Source: Schmidtea nova (lineage: Eukaryota). From it: 64,000 bases of DNA. The translations under genes were made by a program, and so were the position numbers. The notes beneath the pieces were generated by a model. The model searched no databases. It was not told where the DNA came from and worked only from the letters and a program-made list of their open reading frames with translations. The stretch's first letter is position 1, and each line of letters starts with the position of its first letter. Positions 2,776 to 63,207 of the stretch are shown here, piece by piece. The stretch spans positions 247,380,001 through 247,444,000 of the forward strand of contig CM097882.1 in NCBI GenBank assembly GCA_044892505.1, given 5' to 3'.

Positions 2776-2781
2776 CATACA

Positions 2782-2782
<1 letters not shown>

Positions 2783-2831
<49 letters not shown>

Positions 2832-2850
2832 TTAATAATAATAATAATAA
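2783..2850 (+). repeat. (TAA)n microsatellite
   Basis: A run of TAA units is directly visible. Confidence 0.95.
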
Positions 2851-4200: not shown

Positions 4201-4201
4201 C

Positions 4202-27010: not shown

Positions 27011-27233
27011 AATGTGTCAATATTAAAATAATAATATTGTTTTAATATTGACAATTAAAATAGTTGAGCGTTGTTTTTAAATATAATTTGCATTATGAGT
27101 AAACCGACTTTTACTGCCATGCTTGTTCTAAATACAAAGTTTTGTGTTGATATCGTAAGTCTTTCTATTTTAGTCTCACGACTTATTGGGCGCACCACAT
27201 ACAATTCTTAACTTCCAAGAAGAAAGAATATGT

Positions 27234-34894: not shown

Positions 34895-35421
34895 TGCTGG
34901 GATTATGGGTGGGTTTTACGTAATTCAAATAAACAATTAATCATACTAGGGATTCCGCGCCCATAACCATACATAACATGACTACTACACGCGTATGCCC
35001 TTGACTATTCCCCACTAGTCAAGTTGGTACTGCATACGGTGGTGGAAAAATGATGGGCAGGTGAGCTTTGTCGCCAAAACTACTCCCCATTTATCTTCCC
35101 TCGGGTTCTTGCTGCCGATAGAAGGTCTTACGCATTTACATTCTATGGATGTTCGTTTCCTACTGAATTTTATACTACATATCCCTATGATCTATCACAC
35201 GCTTTTCCCAATGACGCTCTCCCTCGCTGTTCTACAAGCCTACGAAAACTCTCGCTGCTAAGTAACGGTCGGTGTAGGTTTTACGATGCGATTTTTAGTT
35301 CTACGAATTACTTATGTAGTCTTATTTTATTTAGTGAAATCACACGATGAGAGAAAAAATTTACACAGTAATACTTTATTAAAATAATAAAGACAGGTTG
35401 TTATGTTACATGGAGATTTTC

Positions 35422-36006
35422 CTATTCAAACTCCAGGCTAATCTCCTGGATTAACTCTGCTTCGGTTAAGGAGTTCAGGTGGTGAATTTGTTCGTCCAGG
35501 CGCCTTGCAAATTCTCGGCGACGACGACGCTGTCGCGATCCCATTCGATGTTTTCGAAGCTGTGGGTTTATGGCCGGTGCTGACGCTATTGTTCTCGGGG
35601 GATCACTGGGAAAAATAGGCAAATCTTCCGTTGTAAGAGTGGGTGCCATGATGATTTCCTCTTCCGTCCCGCAAGCGACATCTTGGTGAGTGCATTGTAT
35701 CCAGCGCTGAGCCGTGATCGGCCGGATTAGCGCTCGTAATTCGGAGTCGATGTAACTTCTTGTTACTGCGTTCAGGCAATTTCGGAGTTCTCGCTGGACG
35801 GCATCTAATTCCAATTTGGTTGTAGCCAATGCTTCCTGCACTCGCTCGAGTTTTTTCGACTGGTCCTTCATCTGTTCGGGCGAGAACCACTTCGCTTTCA
35901 ATTCATCATTGGCGACCGTGAGTCGCTTGATCTGTCGCTGCTGGTCCCTCAGCTTTCTCTCTTGAATTTGTCCCATGATTTTCTTCGAATTTTCTGAAGT
36001 CGGCAT
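35422..36006 (-). CDS. LTR-encoded 194-aa coiled-coil protein with an Arg-rich motif (3' LTR copy)
   Basis: ORF track. N-terminal coiled coil; RKHRMGSRQRRRRREFARR. A diverged homolog lies at about 9.4-9.9 kb. Confidence 0.72.
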   Translation of the reverse strand: MPTSENSKKIMGQIQERKLRDQQRQIKRLTVANDELKAKWFSPEQMKDQSKKLERVQEALATTKLELDAVQRELRNCLNAVTRSYIDSELRALIRPITAQRWIQCTHQDVACGTEEEIIMAPTLTTEDLPIFPSDPPRTIASAPAINPQLRKHRMGSRQRRRRREFARRLDEQIHHLNSLTEAELIQEISLEFE

Positions 36007-36322
36007 GTTGTCTGAAGATTATAACGATAAATTCACTGGAGGGCCTATCAACAATGTTATTTTATTTAAACAACTATTATTATTATTAAACGAGATGTAT
36101 ATTAATGTTTTTAATTGTTGAGTTCTCTACAAAATTATTTAACTATCTAATCATTGAAGACTAAAAAGGTTTATTGAACTAATTTTATATTAATAAATGA
36201 ATTTCCTAATGACTATAACAACTACAATACTAAATCTACATGACAACACTATTAACAAAACGAACATTTCAGAATTCTTTAAAACATTTATTTAATTTAA
36301 AAACAGGCGGCCATTGATTCAG

Positions 36323-36799
36323 CTATTCATCCTCGGTCATTTTTCCTCGATACGAAAATACCGAGCGGATCTGCAAATTTGTATGGATTCCTGTGTTATT
36401 GGACGAGGCCTGCTGGAAACGGATTCTCTCAGCTTCTCGGAGGGGTCGGATGGCTGTATTGAACTTGAACCCCAATTCCTTGAAGGTAGAGGCTGGAATG
36501 AACCCCCAATAAATGACACATCTCGGGAATCCACCTTTGTCCAACATCATGATGAACCAGGCGGCGTGCCATGATTCGTATTCCTCGTCTGGAATGATTG
36601 GCCAACTAGCGCATCCCCGGTACCATACGTGGTGCCGTGGATGGTCCCATACTGTAAATGGACAGGCGGTTTCGAGCTCTCGGCGCCATGCCCACATCTT
36701 TTGATGGATTTGCTGTAAAATCTCGAAAGGAGCCGGCTTTAATGGGCTAACTCGGGCTCGTTCTTGTCGTTTTTTGATAGTGTATCTATGCTTAGCCAT
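36323..36799 (-). CDS. LTR-encoded 158-aa protein of unknown function (3' LTR copy)
   Basis: ATG-started ORF in a GC-elevated block with AT-rich flanks. Confidence 0.6.
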   Translation of the reverse strand: MAKHRYTIKKRQERARVSPLKPAPFEILQQIHQKMWAWRRELETACPFTVWDHPRHHVWYRGCASWPIIPDEEYESWHAAWFIMMLDKGGFPRCVIYWGFIPASTFKELGFKFNTAIRPLREAERIRFQQASSNNTGIHTNLQIRSVFSYRGKMTEDE

Positions 36800-38345
36800 G
36801 ATTCCAAAACGATGCTGAATTTTATAATAGTTACAATTTACATCAATAATTAATCATAGTAAATGTTATCTCTCATCGTGATTCCTCTATTATTTGCCTT
36901 CCCCTTAGACCTTAGCTGAAATCAAGAAAAAACTGTTGTTTGTTACAGTATGCATTACTCTCGTATCTACTTAGATTTATCTGTTTATGATCAATTTGAT
37001 AGACGAAAAAATGATGATTTGTCTGCTTGGATTTTCAAAATATTGGTACCTCAAAACGGAAACTCTCTCCCGTCATGTATCCCTAGTTTATTCGAAAAAA
37101 AAACGCTCTTTTGTACCAAACGCGGTCGACATAATTTTCCTAAGGTTTATTAGACGTTTATTAAACAGCGGCGCTATGGTGAGGGTGAAAAATTGTGCCT
37201 CCTCCCGGTTAACAACTTCTTTCATATCTTTAAGCTTTATCAAAAAATTCTCGTCCCCTCTGTAGCTAAAATGATCAGAAAATAATTTTCCGGATTTGTT
37301 GGGTGTCCCATGCGCAAGTCTCAACCACTACTGATAAAATTATGCTTTACTATTTATTACTTTACCGTGTGTGGAGCCCTCGAGCACCACGCCACGGACG
37401 GACACCTTGGGAACCTAAAGCTCCCAACGGCGCAAAATTAATATGATCATTATATATTTTAATGTTGAGTCCAATCACAATAACGTTTAATTCATATAAC
37501 AAATTTCAACACATGAATGCATAAACACATAAATAATTAGATCAATAGATAAATGACAAAGCAAATGACACAATCATGAATAAAATAATACAGAAACCAA
37601 AATACCTAATTCGTCTGGGTTTGCTTCGATCGGTTCGTCTAGAATTCAAAGTCTATTTGATTAGTGAGCTAAATTTTACACTCTCAACTGACGTTGTAAG
37701 ATTAGGTATTAAGTCTGTTTTATCCAAAGTCTGATCAGTATTTATACTGATCAGTCTGATCTAGACTGACCAATCGGATTTGGCCGATTTCATGGTGGGT
37801 TTTAATTATTGTTTTTGATTCTAATTAATTTTTATTTTTTTAGATTGTATTCTTCCTTGGAGGTCCGGGTTTCAAAAACAATTATTCAATAACAAGTACT
37901 TTTATTTGGTTTTAATTATTATTATTTGTATTTTATTTGTTTTTAGATGTCTCCTGGGCCCGTTAATATCTATAAATTCATTTATTTTTATTTATAGCTT
38001 GTACTTAGTTATTCTATATTTTTACTATATTATTCCTTTCTTTTAATAAATAAATATTCCCCTTTTTACCTTATTTTTCTCTTTTTTGTTTTAATTAATC
38101 TACTTTTATTTCATTTTTTTCTCTATTTGGCTGGCCCAACATCACTCGGGGACCCCTAAAATTGCGTCCCGCAATTAATTATACATTTACACCTATATCA
38201 TCATACATAAAAATTAAGCAGATAAATGTCAATTTACATATACACAAAGAATCACGTAAGGTGATAGATTTTATACGTAAGCACAAAGTCATATTATTGT
38301 TAAATGTAAGTGGATCATACATAAAGTGAATGTAATATATCAGTT

Positions 38346-38918
38346 TTACACAAGCTCTTTGATTTCATGATTGGTATTGGATTGGATAGGGGTTCTTTCG
38401 CTGATTGTTCGTAGTTCGTAGTGGCTTTGGATTCGGTTTAGGTGTTTTCTCATTCGCTTTTGGGTTCTGATGTCTTGTATTGTTGTTCGATTCAGGATGA
38501 CATGTTTTTGTTTTAAGATCTTCACTCGGTATGATGTTATGAGGATTGTGATCGCGATAATGGTCACGCTGAGTGCAAGGATTATTATAATTGCGATGAT
38601 CCATTTTTCTTGATATTCTATCTCTGCTTGGGCTAAGCTTTTTATGGGTTCTCGACCTTCTTTTAGGGTTTTTCTGATTGTTTTCAATTTGATTCGATGT
38701 TCATATAGGACCTGTTGAAATTTTTCATCGTTTGGGTTGTCTGATGTTATCTGTTGAAGTTGGGTGATTTCTTGTGTTGCTTCGCTGATTAGTTTATCTA
38801 GTTCTTGATAGGTTTTCTCGGGTAGGGCTCGTAGCTCCTTCTCTGTGAGTTGAAGATCTTCTCTTTGTAGGGTGATTGTTATTAGGTATAGGAATATCGG
38901 TATTCGGAGCTTTTTCAT
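38346..38918 (-). CDS. 190-aa predicted membrane protein (hydrophobic N-terminus, coiled coil, TM helix)
   Basis: N-terminus MKKLRIPIFLYLITITLQ; TM WIIAIIIILALSVTIIAITILITSY; basic tail. Confidence 0.75.
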   Translation of the reverse strand: MKKLRIPIFLYLITITLQREDLQLTEKELRALPEKTYQELDKLISEATQEITQLQQITSDNPNDEKFQQVLYEHRIKLKTIRKTLKEGREPIKSLAQAEIEYQEKWIIAIIIILALSVTIIAITILITSYRVKILKQKHVILNRTTIQDIRTQKRMRKHLNRIQSHYELRTISERTPIQSNTNHEIKELV

Positions 38919-39000
38919 ACTGTTTTCTTTACAGGTAGGTCAATACAATTTGATACTACATTTCATACAATTATTTACAAAAATATATTTTCCGCTTTAT

Positions 39001-40062
39001 TTACACAATCGTCTCGTTTGGTTCGTAGAAACCTTCGTCCTGAGGTTCTACCTGGTTCGTGGGGAGTGGTATCCAAACAACCCTGCTCCTCCACATTTCG
39101 ACTTCATCTCGATACATGTGAGATATCTGGATCTCCTCGTCCAGCAAATATTCTAGGTAATTTGCTTGTTCTGTTAATGTTTCTATTTGCTTCTCTAATT
39201 CGATTACTTTTGTCTTTTGTTCGTCTTCTTTCATCATTTTTGTTACGGCTGCCGTTGTACTTGTTTCTTTGGGTATTGCTAGTACTGTTACTCGTTTCTG
39301 TTTCAATTCTTCGTTTTCTTTCATCAAATTCGTTAAATTTTCCTCATAACTTTGCTTCGCTTCCTTTAACCTTTCTCTGGTTCTTTTTAGCTCTATTTTC
39401 TTCTGGGTAATCACTCCTTGATAACCATTTATATCTCTCTTCATCTCTTCTTCTTTCTGATTCCATATTCCGGTGAGCATAGATTTCAGTTGTTCTTGAT
39501 TAGCTAGTTCTTCTCCCATTCTTTGAACTTGATAGGTTAGTCCTTTAATTTTCTTTGCTTGTTCGCGGATAAATTGCTGTCTTTTTGTATTCCATCTTTT
39601 ATTTAACACTTCCTGGTTGATTTTTTGCTCTAACTCGTCTTTTAGTTCATCGATCTCTTTATATAACTTCCAATCATCACTATAATCTGTCCTTTCTATT
39701 ATTTCTCTAGCTTTTTCGTAAGATTCTTTCGCTTCTTTCTTCCAGTATCTTGCTTGTTCTGTAATCGAATACATCTTGTGTTCAGCTTCCATCTGCTGTC
39801 TGTCTCTTTCCTCTCGTCGCTCTTTCATCATTCTCTGGTAATATTCCTTTTGTTGTTGTAGCATTTTGTATACTTCTTCTATTTTTTCTCGACTTCTTTG
39901 ACTTGATCTTTCCGCTTCTTTTAATAATTCGGCTTGTCTCTCTATCTCCTCTTGCTTTCCATAATATGCATTGACCCATATTTCAATCTGTTCTAGATGA
40001 TCGCTAATCGCTTCTGCTTGATGCATCGTAATTTCCTGTAAGCATACTTCGATATTTCCCAT
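39001..40062 (-). CDS. 353-aa coiled-coil protein
   Basis: Long E/K/Q/R-rich heptad-like sequence; no catalytic motif recognised. Confidence 0.8.
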   Translation of the reverse strand: MGNIEVCLQEITMHQAEAISDHLEQIEIWVNAYYGKQEEIERQAELLKEAERSSQRSREKIEEVYKMLQQQKEYYQRMMKERREERDRQQMEAEHKMYSITEQARYWKKEAKESYEKAREIIERTDYSDDWKLYKEIDELKDELEQKINQEVLNKRWNTKRQQFIREQAKKIKGLTYQVQRMGEELANQEQLKSMLTGIWNQKEEEMKRDINGYQGVITQKKIELKRTRERLKEAKQSYEENLTNLMKENEELKQKRVTVLAIPKETSTTAAVTKMMKEDEQKTKVIELEKQIETLTEQANYLEYLLDEEIQISHMYRDEVEMWRSRVVWIPLPTNQVEPQDEGFYEPNETIV

Positions 40063-40178
40063 TGCTATAATTTCAAAAAAAAAATTTTTTAATCGGTTTA
40101 TATATCAGTTATTTTTTGTTTATATAATAATTTTTGGGTATTTAACTGTACATATTATTTACACGATCACTTCTCTTG

Positions 40179-41561
40179 TTACGTCAACCATTCTTTTCTA
40201 TCCGCTTTCTCATTCCTTTCCATTTCTATGTATAGGGTGTCTGCATATAATCGTTCCCATAGGCTTTCTTTCGTTATAAACATTGGTTCTCCCGCTGCTA
40301 ATCCACATTCTGTGGTTGGTTTCTCGCTCGTACTCGCATGTTTCTCTGTCTCAAAGAATTTTTCTACTGGTTTTGTTACATTTCTGATTCTAATGATGAC
40401 TCCTACTTTCAAGGGCCATTCTACTAGGTCGTCGTATTCTCCTTTACATAGCGAGAAAAATATTGACACATGTGTTCCTCGTCCTCTTCCGTCTCCATTT
40501 GGGTATAGCTTCAATCTCACTTTAGCTCCGTTTCTCCATAAATAAAATGGTGGGCTTATTACTGCTGTTTTCGTCATATTTCTGGCCTCTGTTAATTTGT
40601 TTCTAAAATCTGTCACTTTCCACACATAGGGTGCGATTGGTAACTTTTCCTCGGTATCCTGGGTGAGTTTGTTGTACTGGATTTTCATTCCTTTAGCCAA
40701 TTCTTCGATAGCTTTTATCTTTTCCTCCATCTTTTCTCGTGTTAGTTCGAATTGCTCTCTGGTTTCCAACAGTAGGTTTACCATTATCTTGTGTGACTCT
40801 ATTTCTCTTTCTAATTTTTTGATTGTTTGTTCGGTTTCTTTTGTTGCTTCGTTTGTCATTTCCGCATGCTTTAGCAATGCTTCCTCCAGATGTTGTTTCA
40901 TGGTTTTTTGCGTTCTTTTCTCCATACATCCCTGTTTGTTATAAGGACATTCCCTTGGTTTCTCCGTGCACACTTTCCAATGTTCTTGTAATTTTACTTC
41001 TACCGTTATCTCGCATTCGTTTGAACATATTCCTACATATTGTCTACATACTTTCTCCTCTTTTATATTCAGGTGTTCTTCTTCGATCTTTCTCCTCGTT
41101 TCTCGAGTTCCACAATATTCGCATAGACTTTCCTCTTCTTTACATTCATCTTTGTGCTGCTCTTTATTCTTTATAGTTATTTTTTGTTGGCATTTGTTAC
41201 ATTCAGTTCTCTTCTCTTCGCAGTTCTCCAGATGGTTCTCGAGATCGCGTATTTGTCCTTGCCATATACATGGTTGATTTATACATTCGGTTTTCGTGTT
41301 CATGATTTCTCTCTGAGTTGCTCTATCTGGTCCGGTTTCTTCGAATTTTATTTGACCTTCTTTGCATTCTGGACATTCTGGTGGTCTTTTCATACTTAAC
41401 TCGTGTATGCATTTGGTACATACTCTGCATCCGCATAGGGTTTGTCTTGGTTTCAATATTATGTTTTTACAATTTACACAAGTGAGTCTCAGACTCCATT
41501 TCCTGTTCTCGGCTCTCAAAATTTCGATTATCCGCTCTTCGGCTTTTCCTTCTGTATTCAT
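40179..41561 (-). CDS. TRAF: Full-length intronless TRAF-family protein (RING, TRAF zinc fingers, coiled coil, MATH/TRAF-C)
   Basis: RING CVNC..QTLCGCRVCTKC..CPEC. TRAF fingers such as CPYNKQGC..KQHL. MATH domain YVWKVTDF..SPPFY..KVRLKLYPNGDGRGRGTHVSIFF..GEYDDLVEWP. Confidence 0.95.
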   Translation of the reverse strand: MNTEGKAEERIIEILRAENRKWSLRLTCVNCKNIILKPRQTLCGCRVCTKCIHELSMKRPPECPECKEGQIKFEETGPDRATQREIMNTKTECINQPCIWQGQIRDLENHLENCEEKRTECNKCQQKITIKNKEQHKDECKEEESLCEYCGTRETRRKIEEEHLNIKEEKVCRQYVGICSNECEITVEVKLQEHWKVCTEKPRECPYNKQGCMEKRTQKTMKQHLEEALLKHAEMTNEATKETEQTIKKLEREIESHKIMVNLLLETREQFELTREKMEEKIKAIEELAKGMKIQYNKLTQDTEEKLPIAPYVWKVTDFRNKLTEARNMTKTAVISPPFYLWRNGAKVRLKLYPNGDGRGRGTHVSIFFSLCKGEYDDLVEWPLKVGVIIRIRNVTKPVEKFFETEKHASTSEKPTTECGLAAGEPMFITKESLWERLYADTLYIEMERNEKADRKEWLT

Positions 41562-41651
41562 TCTACAATGATATATACACTTGATTTGTTATCTATTTTT
41601 TGATTTTTCTTGTTTTTGTTTTACATATTTACAATTTTTCGCTTTATTTAT

Positions 41652-42008
41652 CTACGGCTCGTTTGTTGAATCTGGTTCTGGGTCGTTTTCTGATCTGTTT
41701 ATTGCCCAATTTGTCCATCCATCCTCTGCTTCTTCTGTCTCTCCCATTGTTAAACGGTCTATCTCTATTGCTTGTCTCTGATTTATGTCGCTCATCACTT
41801 GATTCTCTCTGGTAAGTTGCGTTATCAATCTCTGTTGCTCCTCGATTCTGTGGAGTTGTTCAAAACTATTATTATAACTTTCGGATAACAAATTCTGTTT
41901 CTCAATTAACTGATTTTGTAGTGAGTTGATTGTTCGTATTAACATGTCACACTGGGCTTTCCATCGCATAGCCATAGTAGTTTCTGCTATTTCTTCCTGT
42001 TCGTTCAT
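41652..42008 (-). CDS. 118-aa coiled-coil protein with an acidic tail
   Basis: ORF track; heptad pattern LIRTINSLQNQL..LTRENQ. Confidence 0.65.
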   Translation of the reverse strand: MNEQEEIAETTMAMRWKAQCDMLIRTINSLQNQLIEKQNLLSESYNNSFEQLHRIEEQQRLITQLTRENQVMSDINQRQAIEIDRLTMGETEEAEDGWTNWAINRSENDPEPDSTNEP

Positions 42009-42133
42009 TTTCTAAATTATATACATTAATCGTTTTCTCGATTTCTCTTTTTATATTTTTATAATATCGATACCCATACTATTACGGTAATGCATTGTTA
42101 TTTACACTATTATTTACAGTCATATCCCGCCTC

Positions 42134-43510: not shown

Positions 43511-43543
43511 TGTGTCAATGTCTATCCCTTCTTCTAACCGTTT

Positions 43544-55500: not shown

Positions 55501-57523
55501 CTTCTCTGGGCAGTTTCGTTACTCCTGGAGCCATTTCATTCACTTTATTGAACAATATTTCTACTTCTTCCTTTATGTTATATTGGAATCGAAACACGTG
55601 CTTGTTTGGCAAAATTACCATCATTCCTCTTTTCCCGAGTTTCCTTTTCTCTTCTTGGTTCCCTTCTTTTTCTACTTCCTTTTCTGTTTCTTTTTCTGCT
55701 TCTTCATCTTCTTGTATTATCTCTTTTCGGCCTTCGTTGTTGGTTGGATTTGGGTTTGTTGGATTTATTTCTGGTACAGTCTCTTTCTCGTGGGTATTTG
55801 TTTGATTGGTTGCTCTCATCATATTAATTCTTAGAGGTTGTCGTTCTCTTTCTTGCTGTTTTTGTTCCTCTTCTCTTTGTATTCTTGCCCATTCCTGAGC
55901 ATGTCGTGCTTGACTTTCCCGATTCAATCGTTCGTTTTCGCTTTCTATTTTTCTCATCATATTGATTTGTTGTTGACCTGTTTGCGGATTTCCTCTGGTT
56001 GTATTGTTTATCAGCTCCGTCAATCTTTGGACCTCTTGCATTAAATGTATCTCTTTAGTGGTATTTTTATTTTGGTTATTATTATTACTATTTGGTTGGT
56101 TTCCGTATTCCGGTTGGTTTCCATTATTTGGCTGATTTCCATAATTCTGTCGGTTTCCACCAGTTGGTTGGTTGCCATAGTTTTGTCGGTTTCCGGTATT
56201 CTGCCAGTTTCCTCGTTGATTGCTTCTTTGTCCGCAATTTCTTGATAGGTGTCCAGGCCGTCCACAATTAAAACAGGTTATTGTGTAACATCTGCTCTCT
56301 GAATGCCCTTTTACTCCACATTTTCCACAATTCAAGTTCTGATAACATTCTTGTTGCCAATGTCCCAATTTCCCACATGTTTTGCATTGTTTCGTTGGTC
56401 CTTGGGGGTTGTAATTGTTTTGATTTCCGTAATTTGATACTTTATTCCCTTCATTCCTTCGTTGCGGTGGTGGTCGGTTTAATTGTTGTGAATTTGGAAT
56501 GTGGTTATTCAGGTTCACTTCTTGTTCGTTTTGTGCTGTATCCATAGCTAAATAGATTCTACCATCATTTCCTATCATGTGTAGTTCAAATCTATTAGCT
56601 GTTTCTAGTGCTTGGTCGATGGTTTTACAACCTTGACATCCAACTTGCGCTCTTATGTCGGGTCTTCTTAATCCTCCCACAAAGATAGCTGCCATTAACT
56701 CCTCATTTATTGGGCTGTCTTGATTAAAGATCAACTTTGCTAACTTTTTCAATTCGCTTGCATATACCGCATTCGATTCATTTATCTTTTGTTTCCTCAT
56801 TGAGAATTCCGTGAATGCCTCATTCAATACTTTATTTATTCCAAAGGTTTGTTGGAAAAAGTCCTTTATCGCTGACCAACTTGTAGGTGGATTAGTTCCA
56901 TTCTTTGCTTCCAAATATAGATCTAATGCGCTATCTTTCAAATATAGCTGAATTCTGCTTACAGTTGTTTCTGGTTTCCACTTGCATACTTCCACGAATA
57001 TGCCAAATTCCTTTAAGAAAGTTTCTAATTTACTCGCATCTCCATTAAACGGTTCTCCGGAAAATTTGTCTTTTATCTCTTCTCTTGGTTCACTCATTTC
57101 GATTCCGCTGTCTGTAGTTATTTTACTTTCGTTTCCTCTTGTTTCTAGTTCACTGTTAGGTTCGTCACTTGAATTTCGGTCGATCTCAGTTTCCTTTGCT
57201 GATTCGTTATCTGATGCTTTACTATCGTTATCGGTGTCGTCACTTTCTGTTTCTTGTTCTACTTCGTCTTCTATTTCTTCTATATAATCGTTGTTGGTTT
57301 TGTCGACTTCTATTTCACTTATTGGGTTTCTCTCGGGTTCTGCTTGATTTTCTTTGTTGCTTGAACTGTTGCTTGTTACTGATAATTTATCGTTTTCGAT
57401 AATCGACTTTTGTATTATTATCTGCCTTGCTTTACTTCCTTTTGGGCCTTTCTGATTATTATTCTTGGTAGCTTTATTCTTTTCTGCTGGTTTTATTATG
57501 ACACTCTTTTCTCCTTTTCTCAA
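43544..57523 (-). CDS. 4,659-aa Gag-accessory-Env-Pol-accessory polyprotein
   Basis: One uninterrupted frame with CCHC x3, DTG protease, YIDD RT, TDASG RNase H and HHCC/DDE/GPY integrase, plus the extra domains listed separately. The track start is TTG; the first ATG is at 57097. Confidence 0.96.
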   Translation of the reverse strand: MRKGEKSVIIKPAEKNKATKNNNQKGPKGSKARQIIIQKSIIENDKLSVTSNSSSNKENQAEPERNPISEIEVDKTNNDYIEEIEDEVEQETESDDTDNDSKASDNESAKETEIDRNSSDEPNSELETRGNESKITTDSGIEMSEPREEIKDKFSGEPFNGDASKLETFLKEFGIFVEVCKWKPETTVSRIQLYLKDSALDLYLEAKNGTNPPTSWSAIKDFFQQTFGINKVLNEAFTEFSMRKQKINESNAVYASELKKLAKLIFNQDSPINEELMAAIFVGGLRRPDIRAQVGCQGCKTIDQALETANRFELHMIGNDGRIYLAMDTAQNEQEVNLNNHIPNSQQLNRPPPQRRNEGNKVSNYGNQNNYNPQGPTKQCKTCGKLGHWQQECYQNLNCGKCGVKGHSESRCYTITCFNCGRPGHLSRNCGQRSNQRGNWQNTGNRQNYGNQPTGGNRQNYGNQPNNGNQPEYGNQPNSNNNNQNKNTTKEIHLMQEVQRLTELINNTTRGNPQTGQQQINMMRKIESENERLNRESQARHAQEWARIQREEEQKQQERERQPLRINMMRATNQTNTHEKETVPEINPTNPNPTNNEGRKEIIQEDEEAEKETEKEVEKEGNQEEKRKLGKRGMMVILPNKHVFRFQYNIKEEVEILFNKVNEMAPGVTKLPREAFLKIEGAPEVKLKLTDTWENMGVVETKRNVMVIKEIEPEGIPSPVRHETRISRIFKGKMIRRRLGEIDELERKLRKVEVVDDKSESTQKAIKSETRPTENTPSEINQIKHINMLRGQAKNFSDDEEDSDVSSLAGDMLDEPEIEDKKIEVVKTPETIQVKEDEIQKLLDNTLEVIYNEEFIDKKHYRKFMRAILQMNYKEWLPGREVETLSQYVGKLLKEPLHEYIILIEIKTCLPRIWIKTPLTEDIYQWVEDRLGSSYKNKFLYSQNGLVKKRTHLIETGIWPGEVTTLSICDDKREENLQEVAKEANMCFERKIKPRLEYEKGRILRGNLNSMIEQIIPQIKKHRKELMRSEYEKLKRCIECIRDTSHTRWSQISYGKVIAKMGKAMFRQGKITDLKIAVELPNEDTKEIEVVADCTIKELVNVINETLLQREPEEEWEDDIIMKYNEHVLWDHDERRLYKIGIWDNHQTIHVIRMDDTPRETAKDEKRERERQKEVVHKLQQIVDIYRNWRIWPEWEDVLEELNLNRRLRTPVEKQWNERGKCWEPKAGEYEEEYGIGIEDDHKPETGRVCMVTRKAMPADLDGPETTTMWLEREKQKTEEFVEILKTNAHGKRKVVKGLADFFVVNGEDITCLRKVAKAIAEYKRVNEWCPEQLDHVIKKWRNQEFSQESPQKVHLRIVYPNQEKEEFWVGIAEKVRDIKKKLRYEPPFHLQHQGRSLDNSLEIGITPAQLDIANTLTVAAIAGQPLKLKEEKKPKGSMSTPSPMKSVRTPGTSSEQARTTPRETRERTPPEPYDVDEIFTDSDDMLEELIELTKEKDDNIFERIQELPTAIPVTNTEDEVEQEIIIEEVNEIAEEEARRANVENVQFTQEMERWLEERANEPRDVTEETGRETRLVETGTTMDKRPRGRPKMDPANVVIKSREEKRRDQWDLCLKKLNKIAVTKEKETTQTYQGEEWISKMLMEILAIIDPELKKWWRINEISERAKSLHSAIAPILPELIKEKTRSNHLDWQGTTMLIKKLTEGAETDNKYLIAMAYTIYNLLTLSRGRLKPTALERHIKNTAKIIEKEIEPYIISKGGWETFTKTNQKKNQAKNMKKKFEEILGELEKEKSGTGNGKSSLNLSSIIMMMLIWMISTDGATAFEVFDCDQMALGEKYSLRGTEQCKDATPTELKTLKKRQLYHVYQEAELIRTMVRECKVYKTRFAFYCGHRHYSAIVMPGTERESVMLQGEDCEKLFKHGEVETRDRVKIRGKTGVILQQTYYVAGAITGGEGYCQGATYPIFGVAATNLVVIDTYTVELKTYEAFFDPTTGEMKTLPMCKIESNTCQTGMSTLTYQIRGKECQLQLLKEAEFDEIQGKTFQEEEEDEAARGKILQDTVRGEKKIETRTQEKQIKMRNTPTVLITSDADIGMRFVKGKTALKCGVAMLETNYPGIFVSKQEVPSAKRKVHTNDVKLHLYMNNKMDFLFHRGQASLQKVYYDLINNDCILNREILKTKLAVAITNPDSAMPLLPLREGHFGRVVGEVMYVYICKKTNAKVATMTKLQPGQCTNELEIEYKGKVRYVQPVTRIINPVSFEPNPFNCSNAYGPLYQKPDGNWVMFPSRTEVPAPREFELMQLSKGRKFKDVDVSNMGFYSAKDLEAARQNILFPARREAVLSSIVTITGGTNYQGGPNYELLLSPAHFKKATENMMKAMWGRFLIFGQMMAGILGVILIIQIIRVIITQMLACFDIYKREKKVNWKLVVGFLPFLAKTMVLHGHSKDIHRIKRLLKILAKMKGTDEEVGRKFKKIMNNEQARQQLKKERKGLWERMKGYRTQDDSSDDDDDDNEGGQVFKNQVPQYVEKNPAEMWKCYAPPPTMYQEPTPGMRQNTMQMMPMTNIYPMIPEDYRTRRCRSVDPQGDSHTIAVMSSNTGPVLTTTIEINGREIEAMIDTGANISAIDIKWIPQEQRRDIERTNVHVIACSKEVVEVAGRWWVKIKHQNTEIETYVAVIPALSVPCIIGTDLMPALFKEIVIDLGTMRLKDRTGQICAIEAKVTSSKQIIVPARREKICFVKIDPTIEGDMIFEPSKRFEKRKSLPMARGLVSANDNGEIPITVVNFDEEDKIIYENERLGKLTPMMDIEIPIKEGVKEEEPTWNIDSQLLNEDQKKQLERLLIEYKDIFAASDLDLGTCDVTLHTIPLTDETPIALRPYKLAEAQKSVAEAEVQKMLDAEVIEPSCSPWQFPVVMVKKKDGTQRFCIDYRRLNAVTKRDTYPLPDINEMLLTLQGAAYFTSLDLKSGYWQIKMKEEDKEKTAFTIGRDLYQFRKMPFGLTNAPASFQRCMNFVTHGIKQCMVYIDDLLIYSSTFEQHIQDIRDVFVRLRQWKLKLKPSKCDWAKEKVTFLGHIVSAKGKEPDPRNIDKVKECPVPKTITQIQEFLGLCGYYRKFIKDYAGIAKPIQELVKKDVSFIWGSEQQTAFETLRDKLITAPILVHPDFKKPFLLATDASGYAAGAVLGQYDDEGKERVIGYYSRTFKKHEKNYSVTEREALAIILAIKHFKYLLWGHVICITTDHQPLVWLGQHKETSSRLMRWAMQLQEYSPDIKFKSGKANANADCMSRLTFPELTDPEVQRICIMIAEDLDFSELKKDQQEDKELRPIIEFLSSRNMDVFKDNAELKEHMRKYQHRYTIEKGWLLIRDGEKRLMCLPGNRRKEIITQYHDGKLGGHMSDKKTLNRMRQKYYWPTMDEDVKEWIKNCLTCATRKDSGKKWKNPLKPMPIPAEPMTTIAMDVIGPLPESLNGNQYILVITDYLTKFPEAFAMPDQKAKTVARILVEEICCRYGTPKQILTDQGTNFMSEILDEVTNYFRIAKLRTSPYHPQTNGQTERFNGTLIRMLSNYVSKHQTDWDEYIKLCLMAYRMSIHAATKLSPFQLMYGRECNMPIDLEYQPPLSQYMEEDDYVTKFKERMQEIWKTAELNIKFYQESYKDLHDQKKNVKTNDLKPGDWVMIETPEIIPGTVKKLQRPGKGPYEVIYKKENNVKVKLVNRPLIRPIYVNTCRCKKVPKTITTAPEERIITRSQTARMNMLRATNESTEAENNQREKRNKEIVLKAREIMGKWHVRDDILRDIQSIISDYARGLPTKPVISELLEKIPEILSLEDIGGQPALHNAIKWGEVERVKEFLKIAKETNQHLGFGNSEQETPLMVAAIYKSDKAIIDLLINADFNWTERDRENKTVLNHAIWSSNQIMLKQIIEKATWEIDELIKGDIIKEAIKIGNCKTIRKLIKWKRSENDTWVLNINEVYSKGQNALFQFLLKLVCDQKTLLILLDRRKITISKNKEECKFESEKEALFRKIREWCAKSLTKSITYKDISNFQDKYKTVEEEYDKLVDILNHPEKCKQFLGRKERESKRKFTPLFSAEVPYQERLDAIQDKAKELLPEFENSKHTLEILGSIVEKVHAYAEGTYNENDMMIIKREMPVTFLLTKNGVLPIHRALRAGKDRRVVEIARLMQDCGSDMNMKDKKGDTLMIFAARANTKTRVLQELYEAGAGLMGRTNKDSSILDVALLAHNWEVINFIKTITNQEEIEYLTRTVKKASVHSMMHNAELTEAILNWMNPNTNEPAFRINECMEQGQNLYIKCALIINKWPKIIDIFMRRKDLRFTNNPKETERTDKWKELMKTYLNNWIKAKKEILDCKLTDKEIPKQAVTQEYEASILTTITYEKMIEAVNVEDDIFNDQRGGDNTGNDDDSTRENPEDHELSDKEDSEEKGRDTEKNDKNNEFGKQRNNNYKNKNEVKRTGYKQTINPFFKPELLLLTVIMTLISPTQGMICEEKATIQIGNAKGIERVCWSKKDKISGQNSPMDCRISEYEQEIIEIDDLELDTWYRMCTVRKPKDPRSHKTIACANYLTPKVTITVQQSSKGDYVVRKCGRTETQGTKNKKHQTIDRRTTPTIQITIDRPEVRVTTNETERVTYQAELLCLALILTM
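43780..44082 (-). other. Polyprotein domain: internal signal-like peptide plus FN3-like domain
   Basis: PELLLLTVIMTLISPTQG|MICEE followed by IDDLELDTWYRMCTVRK..IACANYLTP. Confidence 0.65.
44770..45065 (-). other. Polyprotein domain: ankyrin repeat cluster 2
   Basis: NGVLPIHRAL..GSDMNMKDKKGDTLMIFAA..GAGLMGRTNKDSSILDVAL. Confidence 0.85.
45640..46055 (-). other. Polyprotein domain: ankyrin repeat cluster 1
   Basis: GGQPALHNAIKWG..EQETPLMVAA..RDRENKTVLNHAI. Confidence 0.85.
46340..47420 (-). other. Polyprotein domain: integrase (HHCC, DDE, GPY/F)
   Basis: YHDGKLGGH..CLTC; IAMDVIGPL; LTDQGTNF; NGQTERFN; GPYEV. Confidence 0.96.
47680..49060 (-). other. Polyprotein domains: reverse transcriptase and RNase H
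   Basis: KKDGTQRFCIDYRRLN, LDLKSGYWQI, MPFGLTNAPASF, YIDD (48449-48460), TDASG, ERE and TDHQPL. Confidence 0.97.
49400..49730 (-). other. Polyprotein domain: aspartic protease
   Basis: IEAMIDTGANISAI (DTG at 49667-49675) and IIGTDLM. Confidence 0.93.
50200..52110 (-). other. Polyprotein domain: envelope glycoprotein of the chuvirus G / herpes gB-like type
   Basis: Signal-like IIMMMLIWMISTDGATA|FEVFDC. Cys-rich ectodomain with C..YCG, DCILNR..LAV..NP, GEVMYVYIC and CTNELEIEYKG..PVTRI. TM FGQMMAGILGVILIIQIIRVII. Family assignment is by motif recall. Confidence 0.8.
52222..52620 (-). other. Polyprotein domain: Bcl-2-like
   Basis: BH2-like IEPYIISKGGWETF (cf. Bcl-xL LEPWIQENGGWDTF); divergent BH1-position LDWQGTTML; helical context. 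Confidence 0.6.
52749..52772 (-). other. Polyprotein motif: AT-hook
   Basis: KRPRGRPK matches the HMGA AT-hook core. Confidence 0.6.
53265..55630 (-). other. Polyprotein region with 3-4 ubiquitin-like domains
   Basis: About 53265-53467 HLRIVYP..KVRDIKKKL..FHLQHQGRSLDN..GI..TLTV. About 54068-54302 IAVELP..EIEV..TIKEL..MKYNEHVL..L.KIGI..TIHVI. About 54615-54830 ..DRLG..FLYSQNG..ETGI.PG..TLSI. A weaker candidate lies at about 55395-55630. Confidence 0.65.
56234..57070 (-). other. Polyprotein domains: Gag capsid-like region and three CCHC knuckles
   Basis: FNGDASKLETFL..IFVGGLR; CKTCGKLGHWQQEC, CGKCGVKGHSESRC and CFNCGRPGHLSRNC. Confidence 0.93.
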
Positions 57524-58077
57524 CGGGATTACTTTTGTATACTCAATTTTCCTGTCTTATCGTGTTCCGATTCTTTTCTTCCTTAGTTGATTGGTTTGGT
57601 TTGATTGATTTATCTAAAATACAAATGTCACTTCAACGATACTCTATTGTTATCGTTGCGCTTTTATTCCCTTTTTACGGGACTTCTCATTACTGGGTTT
57701 CTATTATTTTTCCCCATTCCCAGATTCCCCTTTATTTAAGTCTATTTAAATTATCTATATACTAGTCACAATTATCTATTTAGTCATAACAATTATCTAT
57801 CGGTTATTAAAATACATCAATTATTTTTCCCGCGGTCTCCCAATTTATTTGTCGTTCGAACGCTCTAATTCCCTGAGTCATTTGACTCGATTATTATTTT
57901 TTCATCTCTTTATCTTTCTCTCTGCTAGCCTCTAATTATTAATTCTGCCGGTCTTTCCGGTCAGCTCCTATTTCTCGATTCTACTTGCATGCATTATTTT
58001 AGGTCGCATAATCAGCTTTACTCGCATTTCTCTATTATCGGTGCGCACTATTCTCATTATCGTCGACGATCACAACT

Positions 58078-58697
58078 CTGGGCCTATATTCCCTCTGTTG
58101 TTATTTCTTATCACTTGCAACCCTGGGCCTATATTCCCTCCGTTGCTACTCAAACGATTGTAACCCTGGGCTTATATTCCCTCCGTTACTATCTTCCTTT
58201 AATTTTAAATAATTGCAACCCTGGGCCTATATTCCCTCCGTTGCTACTCAACAATTGTAACCCTGGGCCTATATTCCCTCCGTTACTATATATCCGGATA
58301 TCCCTATTGGCTCCTTTGGCCTCTAATTAATATCAATTATCTCAAATGGCTCTTATGGCCTCAAATTCATATCTCAATTATCTTAAATGGCTCTATTGGC
58401 CTTAAATTCATATCTCAATTATCTCAAATGGCTCTATTGGCCTTAAATTCATATCTCAATTATCTCAAATGGCTCTATTGGCCTTAAATCATATCTCTCA
58501 ATAACGCCTAGCTAGGTCATTCAATATGGCTCTTTGGCCTCAACCCTTTGTTTCAAGGGACAAACCGCTGATAACCCTTTGTTTCAAGGGACAACCTCTA
58601 ATAACCCTTTGTTTCAAGGGACAAACCGCTGATAACCCTTTGTTTCAAGGGACAAATTCTAATAACCCTTTGTTTCAAGGGACAAACCGCTGATAAC
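58078..58697. repeat. Three adjacent tandem arrays upstream of gag
   Basis: 5x CTGGGCCTATATTCCCTCCGTT core (58078-58290); about 4x 41-bp TCTCAAATGGCTCTATTGGCCTTAAA (58310-58490); 5x CCCTTTGTTTCAAGGG at 58544, 58575, 58605, 58636 and 58666. Confidence 0.92.
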
Positions 58698-59171
58698 TTT
58701 TCCTTAACCGGTTAATCGTAATTCTTAACTTCGCTAGCGACTACAATTTCTCAGCTGAGTTCTCTCAATTTCATGCGAGCTGATTATGCACCTCTTATTT
58801 TTCTCTATAATTCCTCGATTCTTTGTTTTATTACTAATTCTTTCGCTGATCAGTCATAATTCAATTTTTATTATTTTCTCTGCGCGCATCTTACCTCCTC
58901 AGGGTTTTCCCTATTTCTCTCCCCAACCAAAATATACAAAAAGATCGCGTTGGTCTACTAATGCGGGATGTGGTGATCAATCACATCACAAAAGCTTTCC
59001 AACATTTGCGATTGGCCCCTTTCTATATACCCCGAGTGGGTTGATCAACTGGTACCTCCCAATGGGTGCTTAACGGACTACTTGACAGTAGCTCAAAAAT
59101 TAATTAACATTGTTGATTGCTCCCTTGACTTTGTCATTCGATACAATATATTAACACACTCTAAATATTTA

Positions 59172-59633
59172 TTATAAATAAACTACAATTTTATCAGCTA
59201 CAGAGAAATTGCACATGGGGCACTCATCACACTTATTCGCACAGTTTTTACAGAATCGAAAATGTCCACATGGCAAAAACATTATTTGGATTTCACTGTC
59301 TTCGCATATGTAACATTGTTTATATTGTTTTGCTGCCTCGACCCCTTGCGACATCCATCGGTTATATGTTAGACTTAACTGCTGTTCTATATGTCGGCAT
59401 CTGATATTCAACTCGGCATCCTCTAATCGTGCTTTGTACCATTTATATCGCGTATTTATATCGAGTTTATTTACTTTCTCTATGATTTTTATTAACTCAG
59501 TTGTTTCCTCAGTTTGTGTCGTAGGTTCCTCATATTCGGATGCTCTTATTCGGGTTATTTTTTCGCAGACTGTCTCAAATGTATCGTTCTCGGTGTTGAA
59601 AAATTCTTCGATTTCTTTCAGTTTTTCCTCCAT
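59172..59633 (-). CDS. 153-aa protein with a C-terminal IAP/MDM2-type RING finger
   Basis: CYIC..IMFLPCGHFRFCKNCANKCDECPMC..KIVVYL at the extreme C-terminus. No BIR motif seen. Confidence 0.85.
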   Translation of the reverse strand: MEEKLKEIEEFFNTENDTFETVCEKITRIRASEYEEPTTQTEETTELIKIIEKVNKLDINTRYKWYKARLEDAELNIRCRHIEQQLSLTYNRWMSQGVEAAKQYKQCYICEDSEIQIMFLPCGHFRFCKNCANKCDECPMCNFSVADKIVVYL

Positions 59634-59936
59634 TTCCTAGATAATTTATTTAATTACTGTGTTAATATTATTCGAAAAGTAGTACTGTGTTTCGTTTTCG
59701 ACAGTTTATAGCCTCCCCCCGTGTTTCGGTAAATTGTCGTCCCGACCTGTTATTTATGAATGCATTTGTTCAATTTATCTACTAATTTGTTTTAATTCTC
59801 TGTTTGTAATTATCTATTTCCACGCAACTCACTTTTATCTCGATTACTCTTTCGGTTACTATTTCTACTCACAAAATTCTTATTTTAAATTTCTCTGTTG
59901 TCATTGGGTTCGCATTTTCGCATAAAAACAAAGTTG

Positions 59937-59954
59937 ATCCCGGCTGAGCCCCCA
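59937..59954 (-). promoter_or_regulatory. Primer-binding site, tRNA-Pro type
   Basis: Minus strand TGGGGGCTCAGCCGGGAT, 16/18 identical to the classical tRNA-Pro PBS TGGGGGCTCGTCCGGGAT; 6 nt from the LTR. Confidence 0.85.
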
Positions 59955-60487
59955 AATTTATGCTGGGATTATGGGTGGGTTTTACGTAATTCAAATAAAC
60001 AATTAATCATACTAGGGATTCCGCGCCCATAACCATACATAACATGACTACTACACGCGTATGCCCTTGACTATTCCCCACTAGTCAAGTTGGTACTGCA
60101 TACGGTGGTGGAAAAATGATGGGCAGGTGAGCTTTGTCGCCAAAACTACTCCCCATTTATCTTCCCTCGGGTTCTTGCTGCCGATAGAAGGTCTTACGCA
60201 TTTACATTCTATGGATGTTCGTTTCCTACTGAATTTTATACTACATATCCCTATGATCTATCACACGCTTTTCCCAATGACGCTCTCCCTCGCTGTTCTA
60301 CAAGCCTACGAAAACTCTCGCTGCTAAGTAACGGTCGGTGTAGGTTTTACGATGCGATTTTTAGTTCTACGAATTACTTATGTAGTCTTATTTTATTTAG
60401 TGAAATCACACGATGAGAGAAAAAATTTACACAGTAATACTTTATTAAAATAATAAAGACAGGTTGTTATGTTACATGGAGATTTTC

Positions 60488-61072
60488 CTATTCAAACTCC
60501 AGGCTAATCTCCTGGATTAACTCTGCTTCGGTTAAGGAGTTCAGGTGGTGAATTTGTTCGTCCAGGCGCCTTGCAAATTCTCGGCGACGACGACGCTGTC
60601 GCGATCCCATTCGATGTTTTCGAAGCTGTGGGTTTATGGCCGGTGCTGACGCTATTGTTCTCGGGGGATCACTGGGAAAAATAGGCAAATCTTCCGTTGT
60701 AAGAGTGGGTGCCATGATGATTTCCTCTTCCGTCCCGCAAGCGACATCTTGGTGAGTGCATTGTATCCAGCGCTGAGCCGTGATCGGCCGGATTAGCGCT
60801 CGTAATTCGGAGTCGATGTAACTTCTTGTTACTGCGTTCAGGCAATTTCGGAGTTCTCGCTGGACGGCATCTAATTCCAATTTGGTTGTAGCCAATGCTT
60901 CCTGCACTCGCTCGAGTTTTTTCGACTGGTCCTTCATCTGTTCGGGCGAGAACCACTTCGCTTTCAATTCATCATTGGCGACCGTGAGTCGCTTGATCTG
61001 TCGCTGCTGGTCCCTCAGCTTTCTCTCTTGAATTTGTCCCATGATTTTCTTCGAATTTTCTGAAGTCGGCAT
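60488..61072 (-). CDS. LTR-encoded 194-aa protein (5' LTR copy)
   Basis: Identical translation to 35422-36006. Confidence 0.72.
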   Translation of the reverse strand: MPTSENSKKIMGQIQERKLRDQQRQIKRLTVANDELKAKWFSPEQMKDQSKKLERVQEALATTKLELDAVQRELRNCLNAVTRSYIDSELRALIRPITAQRWIQCTHQDVACGTEEEIIMAPTLTTEDLPIFPSDPPRTIASAPAINPQLRKHRMGSRQRRRRREFARRLDEQIHHLNSLTEAELIQEISLEFE

Positions 61073-61388
61073 GTTGTCTGAAGATTATAACGATAAATTC
61101 ACTGGAGGGCCTATCAACAATGTTATTTTATTTAAACAACTATTATTATTATTAAACGAGATGTATATTAATGTTTTTAATTGTTGAGTTCTCTACAAAA
61201 TTATTTAACTATCTAATCATTGAAGACTAAAAAGGTTTATTGAACTAATTTTATATTAATAAATGAATTTCCTAATGACTATAACAACTACAATACTAAA
61301 TCTACATGACAACACTATTAACAAAACGAACATTTCAGAATTCTTTAAAACATTTATTTAATTTAAAAACAGGCGGCCATTGATTCAG

Positions 61389-61865
61389 CTATTCATCCTC
61401 GGTCATTTTTCCTCGATACGAAAATACCGAGCGGATCTGCAAATTTGTATGGATTCCTGTGTTATTGGACGAGGCCTGCTGGAAACGGATTCTCTCAGCT
61501 TCTCGGAGGGGTCGGATGGCTGTATTGAACTTGAACCCCAATTCCTTGAAGGTAGAGGCTGGAATGAACCCCCAATAAATGACACATCTCGGGAATCCAC
61601 CTTTGTCCAACATCATGATGAACCAGGCGGCGTGCCATGATTCGTATTCCTCGTCTGGAATGATTGGCCAACTAGCGCATCCCCGGTACCATACGTGGTG
61701 CCGTGGATGGTCCCATACTGTAAATGGACAGGCGGTTTCGAGCTCTCGGCGCCATGCCCACATCTTTTGATGGATTTGCTGTAAAATCTCGAAAGGAGCC
61801 GGCTTTAATGGGCTAACTCGGGCTCGTTCTTGTCGTTTTTTGATAGTGTATCTATGCTTAGCCAT
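61389..61865 (-). CDS. LTR-encoded 158-aa protein (5' LTR copy)
   Basis: Identical translation to 36323-36799. Confidence 0.6.
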   Translation of the reverse strand: MAKHRYTIKKRQERARVSPLKPAPFEILQQIHQKMWAWRRELETACPFTVWDHPRHHVWYRGCASWPIIPDEEYESWHAAWFIMMLDKGGFPRCVIYWGFIPASTFKELGFKFNTAIRPLREAERIRFQQASSNNTGIHTNLQIRSVFSYRGKMTEDE

Positions 61866-63207
61866 GATTCCAAAACGATGCTGAATTTTATAATAGTTAC
61901 AATTTACATCAATAATTAATCATAGTAAATGTTATCTCTCATCGTGATTCCTCTATTATTTGCCTTCCCCTTAGACCTTAGCTGAAATCAAGAAAAAACT
62001 GTTGTTTGTTACAGTATGCATTACTCTCGTATCTACTTAGATTTATCTGTTTATGATCAATTTGATAGACGAAAAAATGATGATTTGTCTGCTTGGATTT
62101 TCAAAATATTGGTACCTCAAAACGGAAACTCTCTCCCGTCATGTATCCCTAGTTTATTCGAAAAAAAAACGCTCTTTTGTACCAAACGCGGTCGACATAA
62201 TTTTCCTAAGGTTTATTAGACGTTTATTAAACAGCGGCGCTATGGTGAGGGTGAAAAATTGTGCCTCCTCCCGGTTAACAACTTCTTTCATATCTTTAAG
62301 CTTTATCAAAAAATTCTCGTCCCCTCTGTAGCTAAAATGATCAGAAAATAATTTTCCGGATTTGTTGGGTGTCCCATGCGCAAGTCTCAACCACTACTGA
62401 TAAAATTATGCTTTACTATTTATTACTTTACCGTGTGTGGAGCCCTCGAGCACCACGCCACGGACGGACACCTTGGGAACCTAAAGCTCCCAACGGCGCA
62501 AAATTAATATGATCATTATATATTTTAATGTTGAGTCCAATCACAATAACGTTTAATTCATATAACAAATTTCAACACATGAATGCATAAACACATAAAT
62601 AATTAGATCAATAGATAAATGACAAAGCAAATGACACAATCATGAATAAAATAATACAGAAACCAAAATACCTAATTCGTCTGGGTTTGCTTCGATCGGT
62701 TCGTCTAGAATTCAAAGTCTATTTGATTAGTGAGCTAAATTTTACACTCTCAACTGACGTTGTAAGATTAGGTATTAAGTCTGTTTTATCCAAAGTCTGA
62801 TCAGTATTTATACTGATCAGTCTGATCTAGACTGACCAATCGGATTTGGCCGATTTCATGGTGGGTTTTAATTATTGTTTTTGATTCTAATTAATTTTTA
62901 TTTTTTTAGATTGTATTCTTCCTTGGAGGTCCGGGTTTCAAAAACAATTATTCAATAACAAGTACTTTTATTTGGTTTTAATTATTATTATTTGTATTTT
63001 ATTTGTTTTTAGATGTCTCCTGGGCCCGTTAATATCTATAAATTCATTTATTTTTATTTATAGCTTGTACTTAGTTATTCTATATTTTTACTATATTATT
63101 CCTTTCTTTTAATAAATAAATATTCCCCTTTTTACCTTATTTTTCTCTTTTTTGTTTTAATTAATCTACTTTTATTTCATTTTTTTCTCTATTTGGCTGG
63201 CCCAACA

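Follow-up and report, generated by a model that had tools for sequence, protein, structure and literature searches.

Why should a single retroelement carry what looks like a toolkit for controlling cell death, and what could it be doing with it? The question is raised by a 64,000-nucleotide stretch of Schmidtea nova DNA (assembly GCA_044892505.1, contig CM097882.1, positions 247,380,001 to 247,444,000), called the window in what follows, on whose minus strand a Ty3/Gypsy long terminal repeat (LTR) retroelement of 28.3 kb, with an internal region of 21.8 kb, occupies positions 34895-63207. An earlier note, made from the letters alone, had taken it for a Burro-like giant Gypsy with cargo pointing at cell death and ubiquitin signaling, and in this it was right. 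Namely, the element is a recently inserted Burro-like giant Gypsy retroelement, a kind already known from planarians, and all of its scorable cargo is under purifying selection. On balance, we think that it probably uses this cargo to hold off death or stress signaling in the host cells in which it replicates. Its anatomy, recent spread and selection are reported here as observations; the mechanism that we propose is inferred from them.

The two LTRs, 3,247 nt each (5' LTR at 59961-63207, 3' LTR at 34895-38141), do not differ at a single position, end in TG...CA and are flanked on both sides by TTTG, a 4-bp target-site duplication (TSD) at 34891-34894 and 63208-63211. The insertion target is itself a repeat, an inverted paralogue of which lies without interruption at window positions 1-1233 and carries the 4-mer once, and it is for this reason that we regard the TSD as genuine and the insertion as recent. 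Between the LTRs, and like all features below on the minus strand unless stated otherwise, there follow an open reading frame (ORF) of 153 amino acids with a RING domain, a frame of 4,670 codons, a frame of 469 codons in the same phase, and ORFs of 118, 460, 353 and 190 amino acids. What is more, the features by which the accessible text of PMC6431247 describes Burro-like elements are found here as well: a size of about 30 kb, an internal region of up to 25 kb, LTRs of several kb, high copy number, a first ORF of about 4,900-5,100 amino acids that starts with Gag and its zinc knuckles, an envelope protein (Env) between the BCL2-like domain and the protease, MATH/TRAF, and ankyrins.

The large frame (43544-57556) has 4,670 codons from stop to stop in this copy, its first Met being codon 154. 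It is closed by an in-frame stop at 43544-43546, and this stop is private: with 30 of 40 scored matches examined, the frame is open at this place in 29 of 29 other close copies (subfamily A1) and in both copies of a second subfamily, A2. The family's polyprotein is thus one of 5,140 codons, of which the 469-codon frame (42134-43543) is the tail. The element is therefore not intact, as it had seemed to be, and the fibronectin type III (FN3) membrane proteins that the earlier note had described are no separate products, although their FN3 fold is borne out by repeats and a model, as discussed below. A frame length of exactly 5,140 codons is seen in 24 of the 83 close copies in the genome, and a frame of at least 5,000 codons is open in 34 of the 83, one of the 34 having a stop inside the match. 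Upstream of the first Met, there are 153 open codons (57098-57556), and three of three A2 copies share this opening position; non-ATG initiation or a spliced 5' exon are both possible starts.

Do these units matter to the element? The accessory ORFs are neither absent from other copies nor decaying neutrally in them, the outcome that the earlier note had held up as fatal to its own proposal. In particular, we compared codons between this copy and natural A2 copies (n = 3) and obtained ratios of nonsynonymous to synonymous substitution (dN/dS) whose bootstrap upper bounds lie below 1. The values are 0.09-0.11 for the RING ORF, 0.07-0.08 for the Bcl-2-like domain, 0.06-0.08 for Env, 0.07-0.09 for the ankyrins, 0.16-0.30 for the FN3 region, 0.09-0.17 for the RING-zinc finger and MATH parts of TRAF, 0.07-0.14 for the ubiquitin-like units and 0.08-0.26 for the other small ORFs, with at most 0.01 for the reverse transcriptase (RT). 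In other words, all scorable cargo is under purifying selection, at dN/dS of 0.06-0.30. One LTR ORF gave 0.48 against A2 and 0.06 against the locus L061; the TRAF coiled coil and the other LTR ORF, where dS is saturated, were left out of the scoring. Between positions 38346 and 59633, dS against A2 takes values between 0.3 and 2.9, and identity in the LTR ORFs is just 28-36%, as against 97-99% in RT; this unevenness, together with the low identity of the LTR ORFs, suggests recombination and LTR exchange.

The unit that was hardest to establish is the Bcl-2-like domain (52208-52681, amino acids 1626-1783 of the polyprotein). With a single copy as query, this region finds no Pfam match, a best PDB match at E = 1.1, unrelated repeats in Atlas and no match among 1.84 billion representative proteins. 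The bridge comes from related families of this genome: C, D and E each have such a domain in the equivalent position, and family E lies at or near the Pfam cut-off for Bcl-2, reaching it in some copies. A nine-row profile matches Bcl-xL at E = 6e-8, and a profile built without the element's own family picks amino acids 1626-1783 at an independent E-value (iE) of 3e-7, the reversed controls scoring no better than 0.07. Furthermore, for a predicted model with a mean local confidence (pLDDT) of 72, every row listed by Foldseek is a chain of the Bcl-2 family, the best at a TM-score of 0.65 (E = 5e-3), and a chain of BHRF1 from Epstein-Barr virus is among them. Both profile and predicted fold thus uphold the Bcl-2-like reading.

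Directly downstream in the same frame, between the Bcl-2-like domain and the protease, comes Env (50282-52051, amino acids 1836-2425), a fusion glycoprotein ectodomain with a membrane segment. It was rightly called fusion-type, as it matches the Monjiviricetes-type family PF24664 at E = 1e-68; no PDB sequence match was found for it. The two units are joined by a hydrophobic segment (52052-52123), which stands where both a Bcl-2 tail anchor and an Env signal peptide would be expected, and the order of Bcl-2-like domain, hydrophobic segment and Env recurs in all 11 loci examined, which come from eight lineages, down to 48% RT identity. It is likely, to judge from this arrangement, that the Bcl-2 tail doubles as the Env signal.

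The separate accessory ORFs are more easily named. The 460-amino-acid ORF at 40179-41561 is a full-length, intronless TRAF with RING, zinc fingers, coiled coil and MATH domain: Pfam gives MATH at E = 5e-22 along with zf-TRAF, and the PDB gives the MATH domains of TRAF2/3/5 at E = 1e-22 and the RING-zinc finger part of TRAF6 at E = 5e-11. No in-frame stop interrupts it in 80 of 92 scored genome matches, and Pfam finds MATH in this ORF and none within the polyprotein. Upstream of the polyprotein, the 153-amino-acid ORF (59172-59633) ends in a C3HC4 RING that is nearest to those of XIAP and cIAP (E = 5e-11 in the PDB). The TRAF and the IAP-type RING had both been predicted correctly. No BIR domain was found anywhere in the element by Pfam or by a six-frame motif scan. 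Three further small ORFs complete the set: one of 190 amino acids (38346-38918; dN/dS 0.25), without family and with one strong hydrophobic, predicted membrane segment; one of 353 (39001-40062; dN/dS 0.10-0.11), charged, probably coiled-coil and with a homologue in the related family B; and one of 118 (41652-42008), without family and with a 38% identical homologue in family B. The trinucleotide YAG stands 1-5 nt upstream of the first ATG in six of seven small ORFs, as against 115 of 604 ATGs (p = 3e-4), which suggests that TRAF, RING and the small ORFs are read from spliced messages.

Of the units inside the polyprotein, the FN3 array is recognized through its own repetition. A signal-like segment with the first FN3-like repeat (43757-44080) matches the other repeats at iE = 9e-10, and the 469-codon tail, severed in this copy by the private stop, adds three FN3-fold-like repeats, a membrane segment (amino acids 386-415) and a tail, with seven N-glycosylation sequons. 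Single-sequence searches with these repeats stay below threshold; the four repeats recognize one another, and a model of one repeat (pLDDT 76) has FN3 domains as its top Foldseek rows (TM-score about 0.52, E = 4e-3). The two ankyrin clusters (44417-46204, about amino acids 3785-4060 and 4100-4380) stand as described, both being found by Pfam.

The claim of ubiquitin-like domains, the weakest of the domain assignments, has held in part. Unit 2 (53261-53509, amino acids 1350-1432) is supported through relatives, namely families B and G: its family B homologue is 32% identical to it and matches a mixed ubiquitin-like profile at E = 1e-4, hhalign gives 47%, and direct searches are blank. Unit 1 (54086-54331, amino acids 1076-1157) is possible, with a weak Pfam match (E = 0.084) and no support by hhalign. 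The mixed profile itself matches ISG15 and ubiquitin at E = 1e-5. A profile from which the element's family was excluded misses both units of the window, and a trimmed one reaches the two expected places at iE = 0.03 (unit 1) and 0.18, close to the level of controls.

The remainder of the polyprotein is that of a Ty3/Gypsy element. A Gag capsid domain with three CCHC knuckles (56222-57064) is found by Pfam, and Pfam and PDB matches place protease, a conserved spacer, RT, RNase H and an integrase with GPY at 46427-49717, with the catalytic motifs of all four enzymes present. The best PDB match of the whole polyprotein is Ty3 Gag-Pol (E = 4e-119). The spacer between protease and RT has a dN/dS of 0.02-0.04 and no Pfam match, and it sits where a dUTPase-like motif is reported for Burro. 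Outside the coding regions, there is an 18-nt primer-binding-site position (59937-59954), a conserved element at the position of the polypurine tract (38142-38176) that is not purine-rich and is 82-84% alike to that of family B over 50 nt, and, in the leader between the RING ORF and Gag, three short tandem arrays (58056-58724) with periods of about 43, 41 and 31 nt. The 5' LTR holds two ORFs without family, at 61389-61865 (158 amino acids) and 60488-61072 (194 amino acids), the copies of which in the 3' LTR lie at 36323-36799 and 35422-36006.

How might these parts work together? Hydropathy and the conserved order around Env suggest one polyprotein threaded through the membrane of the endoplasmic reticulum. 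Gag, the ubiquitin-like units and the Bcl-2-like domain would lie on the cytosolic side, the Bcl-2 tail anchor would serve also as the Env signal peptide and thereby place Env in the lumen, and, after the Env membrane segment, protease, RT, integrase and ankyrins would be back in the cytosol. A second signal would then export the FN3 repeats of the membrane-anchored protein. The element's protease would likely release the units at a motif that recurs at domain borders; this motif, which was defined post hoc, occurs seven times, as against a mean of 0.95 and a maximum of 5 in shuffled sequences, and such processing is what its recurrence suggests. TRAF, RING and the other small proteins would be made in parallel, likely by translation of spliced messages. 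Finally, the Bcl-2 fold would have BH3 proteins that promote death as its binding partners, and TRAF and the RING would divert ubiquitin-dependent survival signaling; that the host cell would thereby be kept alive we infer from the known biology of TRAF, IAP and Bcl-2 proteins.

That said, several points weigh against this picture. The BH1 motif of the Bcl-2-like domain is degenerate in this copy, as seen in the alignment, which makes the function of its groove uncertain; the domain might promote death, or might not act on BH3 proteins. Having no BIR, the RING protein cannot by itself act like the published caspase-binding B-IAP. The E-values of the fold searches exceed 0.001 for both the Bcl-2-like and the FN3 models, and the topology of the tail is uncertain because a short hydrophobic stretch separates FN3 repeat 1 from repeat 2. 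What is more, the three A2 copies represent one subfamily, so that the test for selection is in effect a single comparison, and several regions have a dS close to saturation.

Would the cargo be better understood as that of an infectious, retrovirus-like agent, with Env and FN3 surface proteins for entry and with TRAF and ankyrins that block TNF/NF-kB immunity? Env does have signal-like and membrane segments and a dN/dS well below 1, the FN3 repeats with their sequons make a second predicted surface protein, and a provirus hypothesis is already put forward in the accessible part of PMC6431247. However, the Env ectodomain has one sequon and lacks an R-x-K/R-R site, and retrotransposition alone accounts for the spread through the genome. 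The mimicry of IkB and the targeting of TNF/NF-kB that the earlier note had envisaged found no backing either: the ankyrins match designed or generic repeats, and there is no IkB among the 58 PDB matches of the polyprotein. Moreover, according to the available text of PMC13563047, S. mediterranea has seven divergent Rel-domain genes, yet no clear NF-kB homologue was identified in it; our own Rel-domain search of the genome was blank, was made without a working control and carries no weight. We consider such an agent unlikely, and return to a cargo that serves survival of the cell as the reading we prefer.

To this reading there are two further rivals, each of which we hold to be quite improbable. 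According to one, the cargo is kept chiefly for the benefit of the host, by stem-cell protection and in regeneration, as is reported for Burro1, whose IAP protects stem cells according to work cited in the part of PMC13465017 available. It is favored by the related family B, which has no Gag, Env, RT or integrase of its own and nevertheless retains TRAF, BIR-IAP and RING under constraint, something that is not accounted for by any advantage to replication proteins of its own. Yet the element, too, gains from the survival of the cell that bears it, and for this reason selection in family B does not separate a selfish from a mutualistic use; moreover, the copies are not fixed single loci; they lie scattered and can still move, with LTR pairs 99.8-100% alike. 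According to the other, the ubiquitin-related cargo (RINGs, ubiquitin-like units, ankyrins and TRAF) serves replication, that is, budding, turnover of the polyprotein or removal of silencing factors, and not control of death. In its favor, the simpler relatives C, D and E lack TRAF and IAP yet keep ubiquitin-like units next to Gag and Env, the RING ORF has no BIR, and planarian BURRO1 is described as being under PIWI control in the accessible text of PMC8532177. Against it, a Bcl-2 fold, an XIAP/cIAP-type RING and a full TRAF converge on one death/survival pathway, and cell survival requires planarian TRAF-like proteins, as far as the text of PMC7586133 available goes.

Least of all can we entertain the idea that the extra ORFs are captured host pieces, hitch-hiking and decaying, since in spite of stops in 12 of 92 TRAF matches and the private stop of this copy, neutral decay is refuted, provided that the codon alignments are right, by dN/dS values well under 1 for all accessory regions that could be scored, and the ORF order is the same across subfamilies at 45-80% identity.

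The 18-nt primer site has 2,940 exact matches in the genome (reversed control, 0), and we surveyed the first 30 of these by position, all from one chromosome end. Twenty have a family B leader: 15 of them carry RING, ubiquitin-like unit, protease and ankyrin, without Gag or Env before the protease (one of the 15 ends after the protease, at the end of its stretch), two are autonomous members of family G, and three are without an internal part. The other ten comprise two A1 copies, one A2 copy, one RT-less relative, one autonomous diverged relative, four Gag-only loci and one unassigned locus.

Family B (e.g., L153-L155, L156-L158, L168-L170 and L055-L058) shares the primer site of the window's element, and has TG...CA ends, LTR pairs 99.8-100% alike in three copies and a 4-bp TSD in three of three copies checked. 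Gag and Env are absent from it, as are RT and integrase in the copies followed to their end. Its order is RING ORF, a frame of about 1,045 amino acids with ubiquitin-like unit, protease and ankyrin, a small ORF, TRAF, a BIR-RING IAP, a coiled coil and three further ORFs; the protease frame does not exceed 1,082 codons in any of 150 scored matches. The ratio of nonsynonymous to synonymous polymorphism (pN/pS) of its TRAF, BIR-IAP and RING is 0.12-0.32 (five to eight copies per gene). Family G (L206 with L235; L209 with L238-L239) is autonomous, with MATH inside the polyprotein, an RT 89% identical to that of the window's element and a Pfam trace of fn3 at E = 0.0015; downstream TRAF and IAP ORFs are absent in two of two copies. 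Families G and B share LTR (83-97%), leader and RING ORF (92%), and family G would be the likelier helper of family B.

We raise, tentatively, the possibility of a consortium of helper and satellite, in which autonomous enveloped elements, the one described here among them, would give Gag, Env, Pol, the Bcl-2 fold and the FN3 protein, and the more numerous satellite, mobilized in trans, would give BIR-IAP and TRAF. The proposal draws on the 30 loci from one chromosome end, and the genome may hold an autonomous BIR-bearing family beyond the matches listed. If the proposal were right, what maintains the anti-death toolkit would be selection at the level of the cell or host, and not on the element's own replication. 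In this sense, the satellite family, if confirmed genome-wide, would let one test in a natural setting who profits from anti-death cargo, the element or its host.

Other relatives differ more. One diverged relative (L228-L229) has an open frame in which ankyrin follows directly after the protease, with RT, RNase H and integrase missing and Gag, Env and cargo kept. The Gag-only family (L221, L223, L225 and L227) is 57-59% identical to the Gag of the window's element and has the same primer site. Simpler relatives (L101-L102, L105-L106, L141-L142 and L150-L151) have polyproteins of 3,000-3,400 codons, RT 48-50% identical to ours and a core order of Gag, ubiquitin-like unit, Bcl-2-like domain, signal, Env, Pol, signal, ectodomain and membrane segment; the primer site was not found at two or fewer mismatches in the stretches of them examined. 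A 483-codon accessory ORF of family C (L102:4350-5798), without a Pfam match, has by eye the look of what we take to be a DEDD exonuclease. A protein of 3,108 amino acids (P0001) on a 29,990-nt ENA contig has an N-terminus that looks ubiquitin-like by eye, the same Env family and Pol, and it groups with families C and D in an RT tree of the genome's families, P0001 and outgroups.

Elsewhere in the window, there are a broken Gypsy RT on the plus strand (24509-25585; 37% identity), minus-strand ORFs without identification at 11573-16720 that include a near-perfect tandem duplication of 1.13 kb (11918-14181), and two fold-back repeats (1733-5357 and 27233-27984), made of 29-nt and 15-nt arrays.

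What, then, is gained from this locus? The element is young, present in many copies and of the kind that is richest in genes among Gypsy elements, and the selection found on every scorable cargo unit is the confirmation that the 2019 review had called for. Moreover, it offers specific proteins for testing, namely those with the predicted Bcl-2 fold, the RING without BIR and the FN3 membrane repeats. Planarians are credited with more than 121 TRAF transcripts in the accessible text of PMC7586133, and many of these may be element-borne.

It remains to compare the element with known systems. Large DNA viruses offer an analogy with their Bcl-2, IAP and ankyrin proteins; the likeness lies in the predicted Bcl-2 fold and the IAP-type RING, whereas here the setting is a polyprotein and the PDB matches of the ankyrins include no IkB. 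With Ty3/Gypsy elements (Metaviridae), ours shares the order of protease, RT, RNase H and integrase and the 4-bp TSD, and its accessory set is large in comparison. In errantiviruses, as PMC6431247 also states in general terms, Env is a separate ORF downstream of pol, whereas here it is in frame between Gag and Pol and belongs to the Monjiviricetes fusion family.

The closest parallels are the Burro elements. For Burro/GYPSM1, the accessible text of PMC6431247 reports MATH/TRAF, BIR, ankyrin, BCL2-like, Ubi2/SUMO-like and dUTPase-like motifs and an in-frame Env, and it proposes Burro elements to be integrated proviruses with a theme of interference with apoptosis and ubiquitination. The logic of the cargo, which the earlier note had thought possibly unreported, was thus already published, and the Burro1 BIR-RING work cited in PMC13465017 belongs with it. 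The FN3 array, the likely double use of the Bcl-2 tail as Env signal, and the cargo-only satellite were not found in the literature searched; the original Burro descriptions may hold them. Burro1/GYPSM1 and Burro2-4 of S. mediterranea have in common with our element, as described in the sources available, the build of a giant Gypsy of about 30 kb with one huge ORF, TRAF/MATH, ankyrin, BCL2-like and Ubi/SUMO-like motifs, Env between BCL2 and protease, and an IAP-related product. By the same descriptions, Burro1 has MATH inside its 4,873-amino-acid ORF1 along with BIR, whereas our element carries a complete TRAF as an ORF of its own and lacks BIR. We therefore file it as Burro-like and not as Burro1, Burro being compared by description; in the S. 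nova genome, the layout with MATH in ORF1 is that of family G, and BIR-RING, among the matches listed, that of the non-autonomous family B.

Finally, the Burro-like element of Dugesia tigrina, as far as it is described in the accessible text of PMC6431247, has MATH/TRAF in an accessory ORF, a Gag with CCHC knuckles and the same order of BCL2-like domain, in-frame Env and protease. By that description, its TRAF ORF lies upstream, whereas ours lies downstream, its knuckles are two as against our three, and FN3 repeats and a RING-only ORF, both present here, go unmentioned. Its ORF1 of 5,140 amino acids is, in turn, the same figure as the stop-to-stop length of the family in our window.

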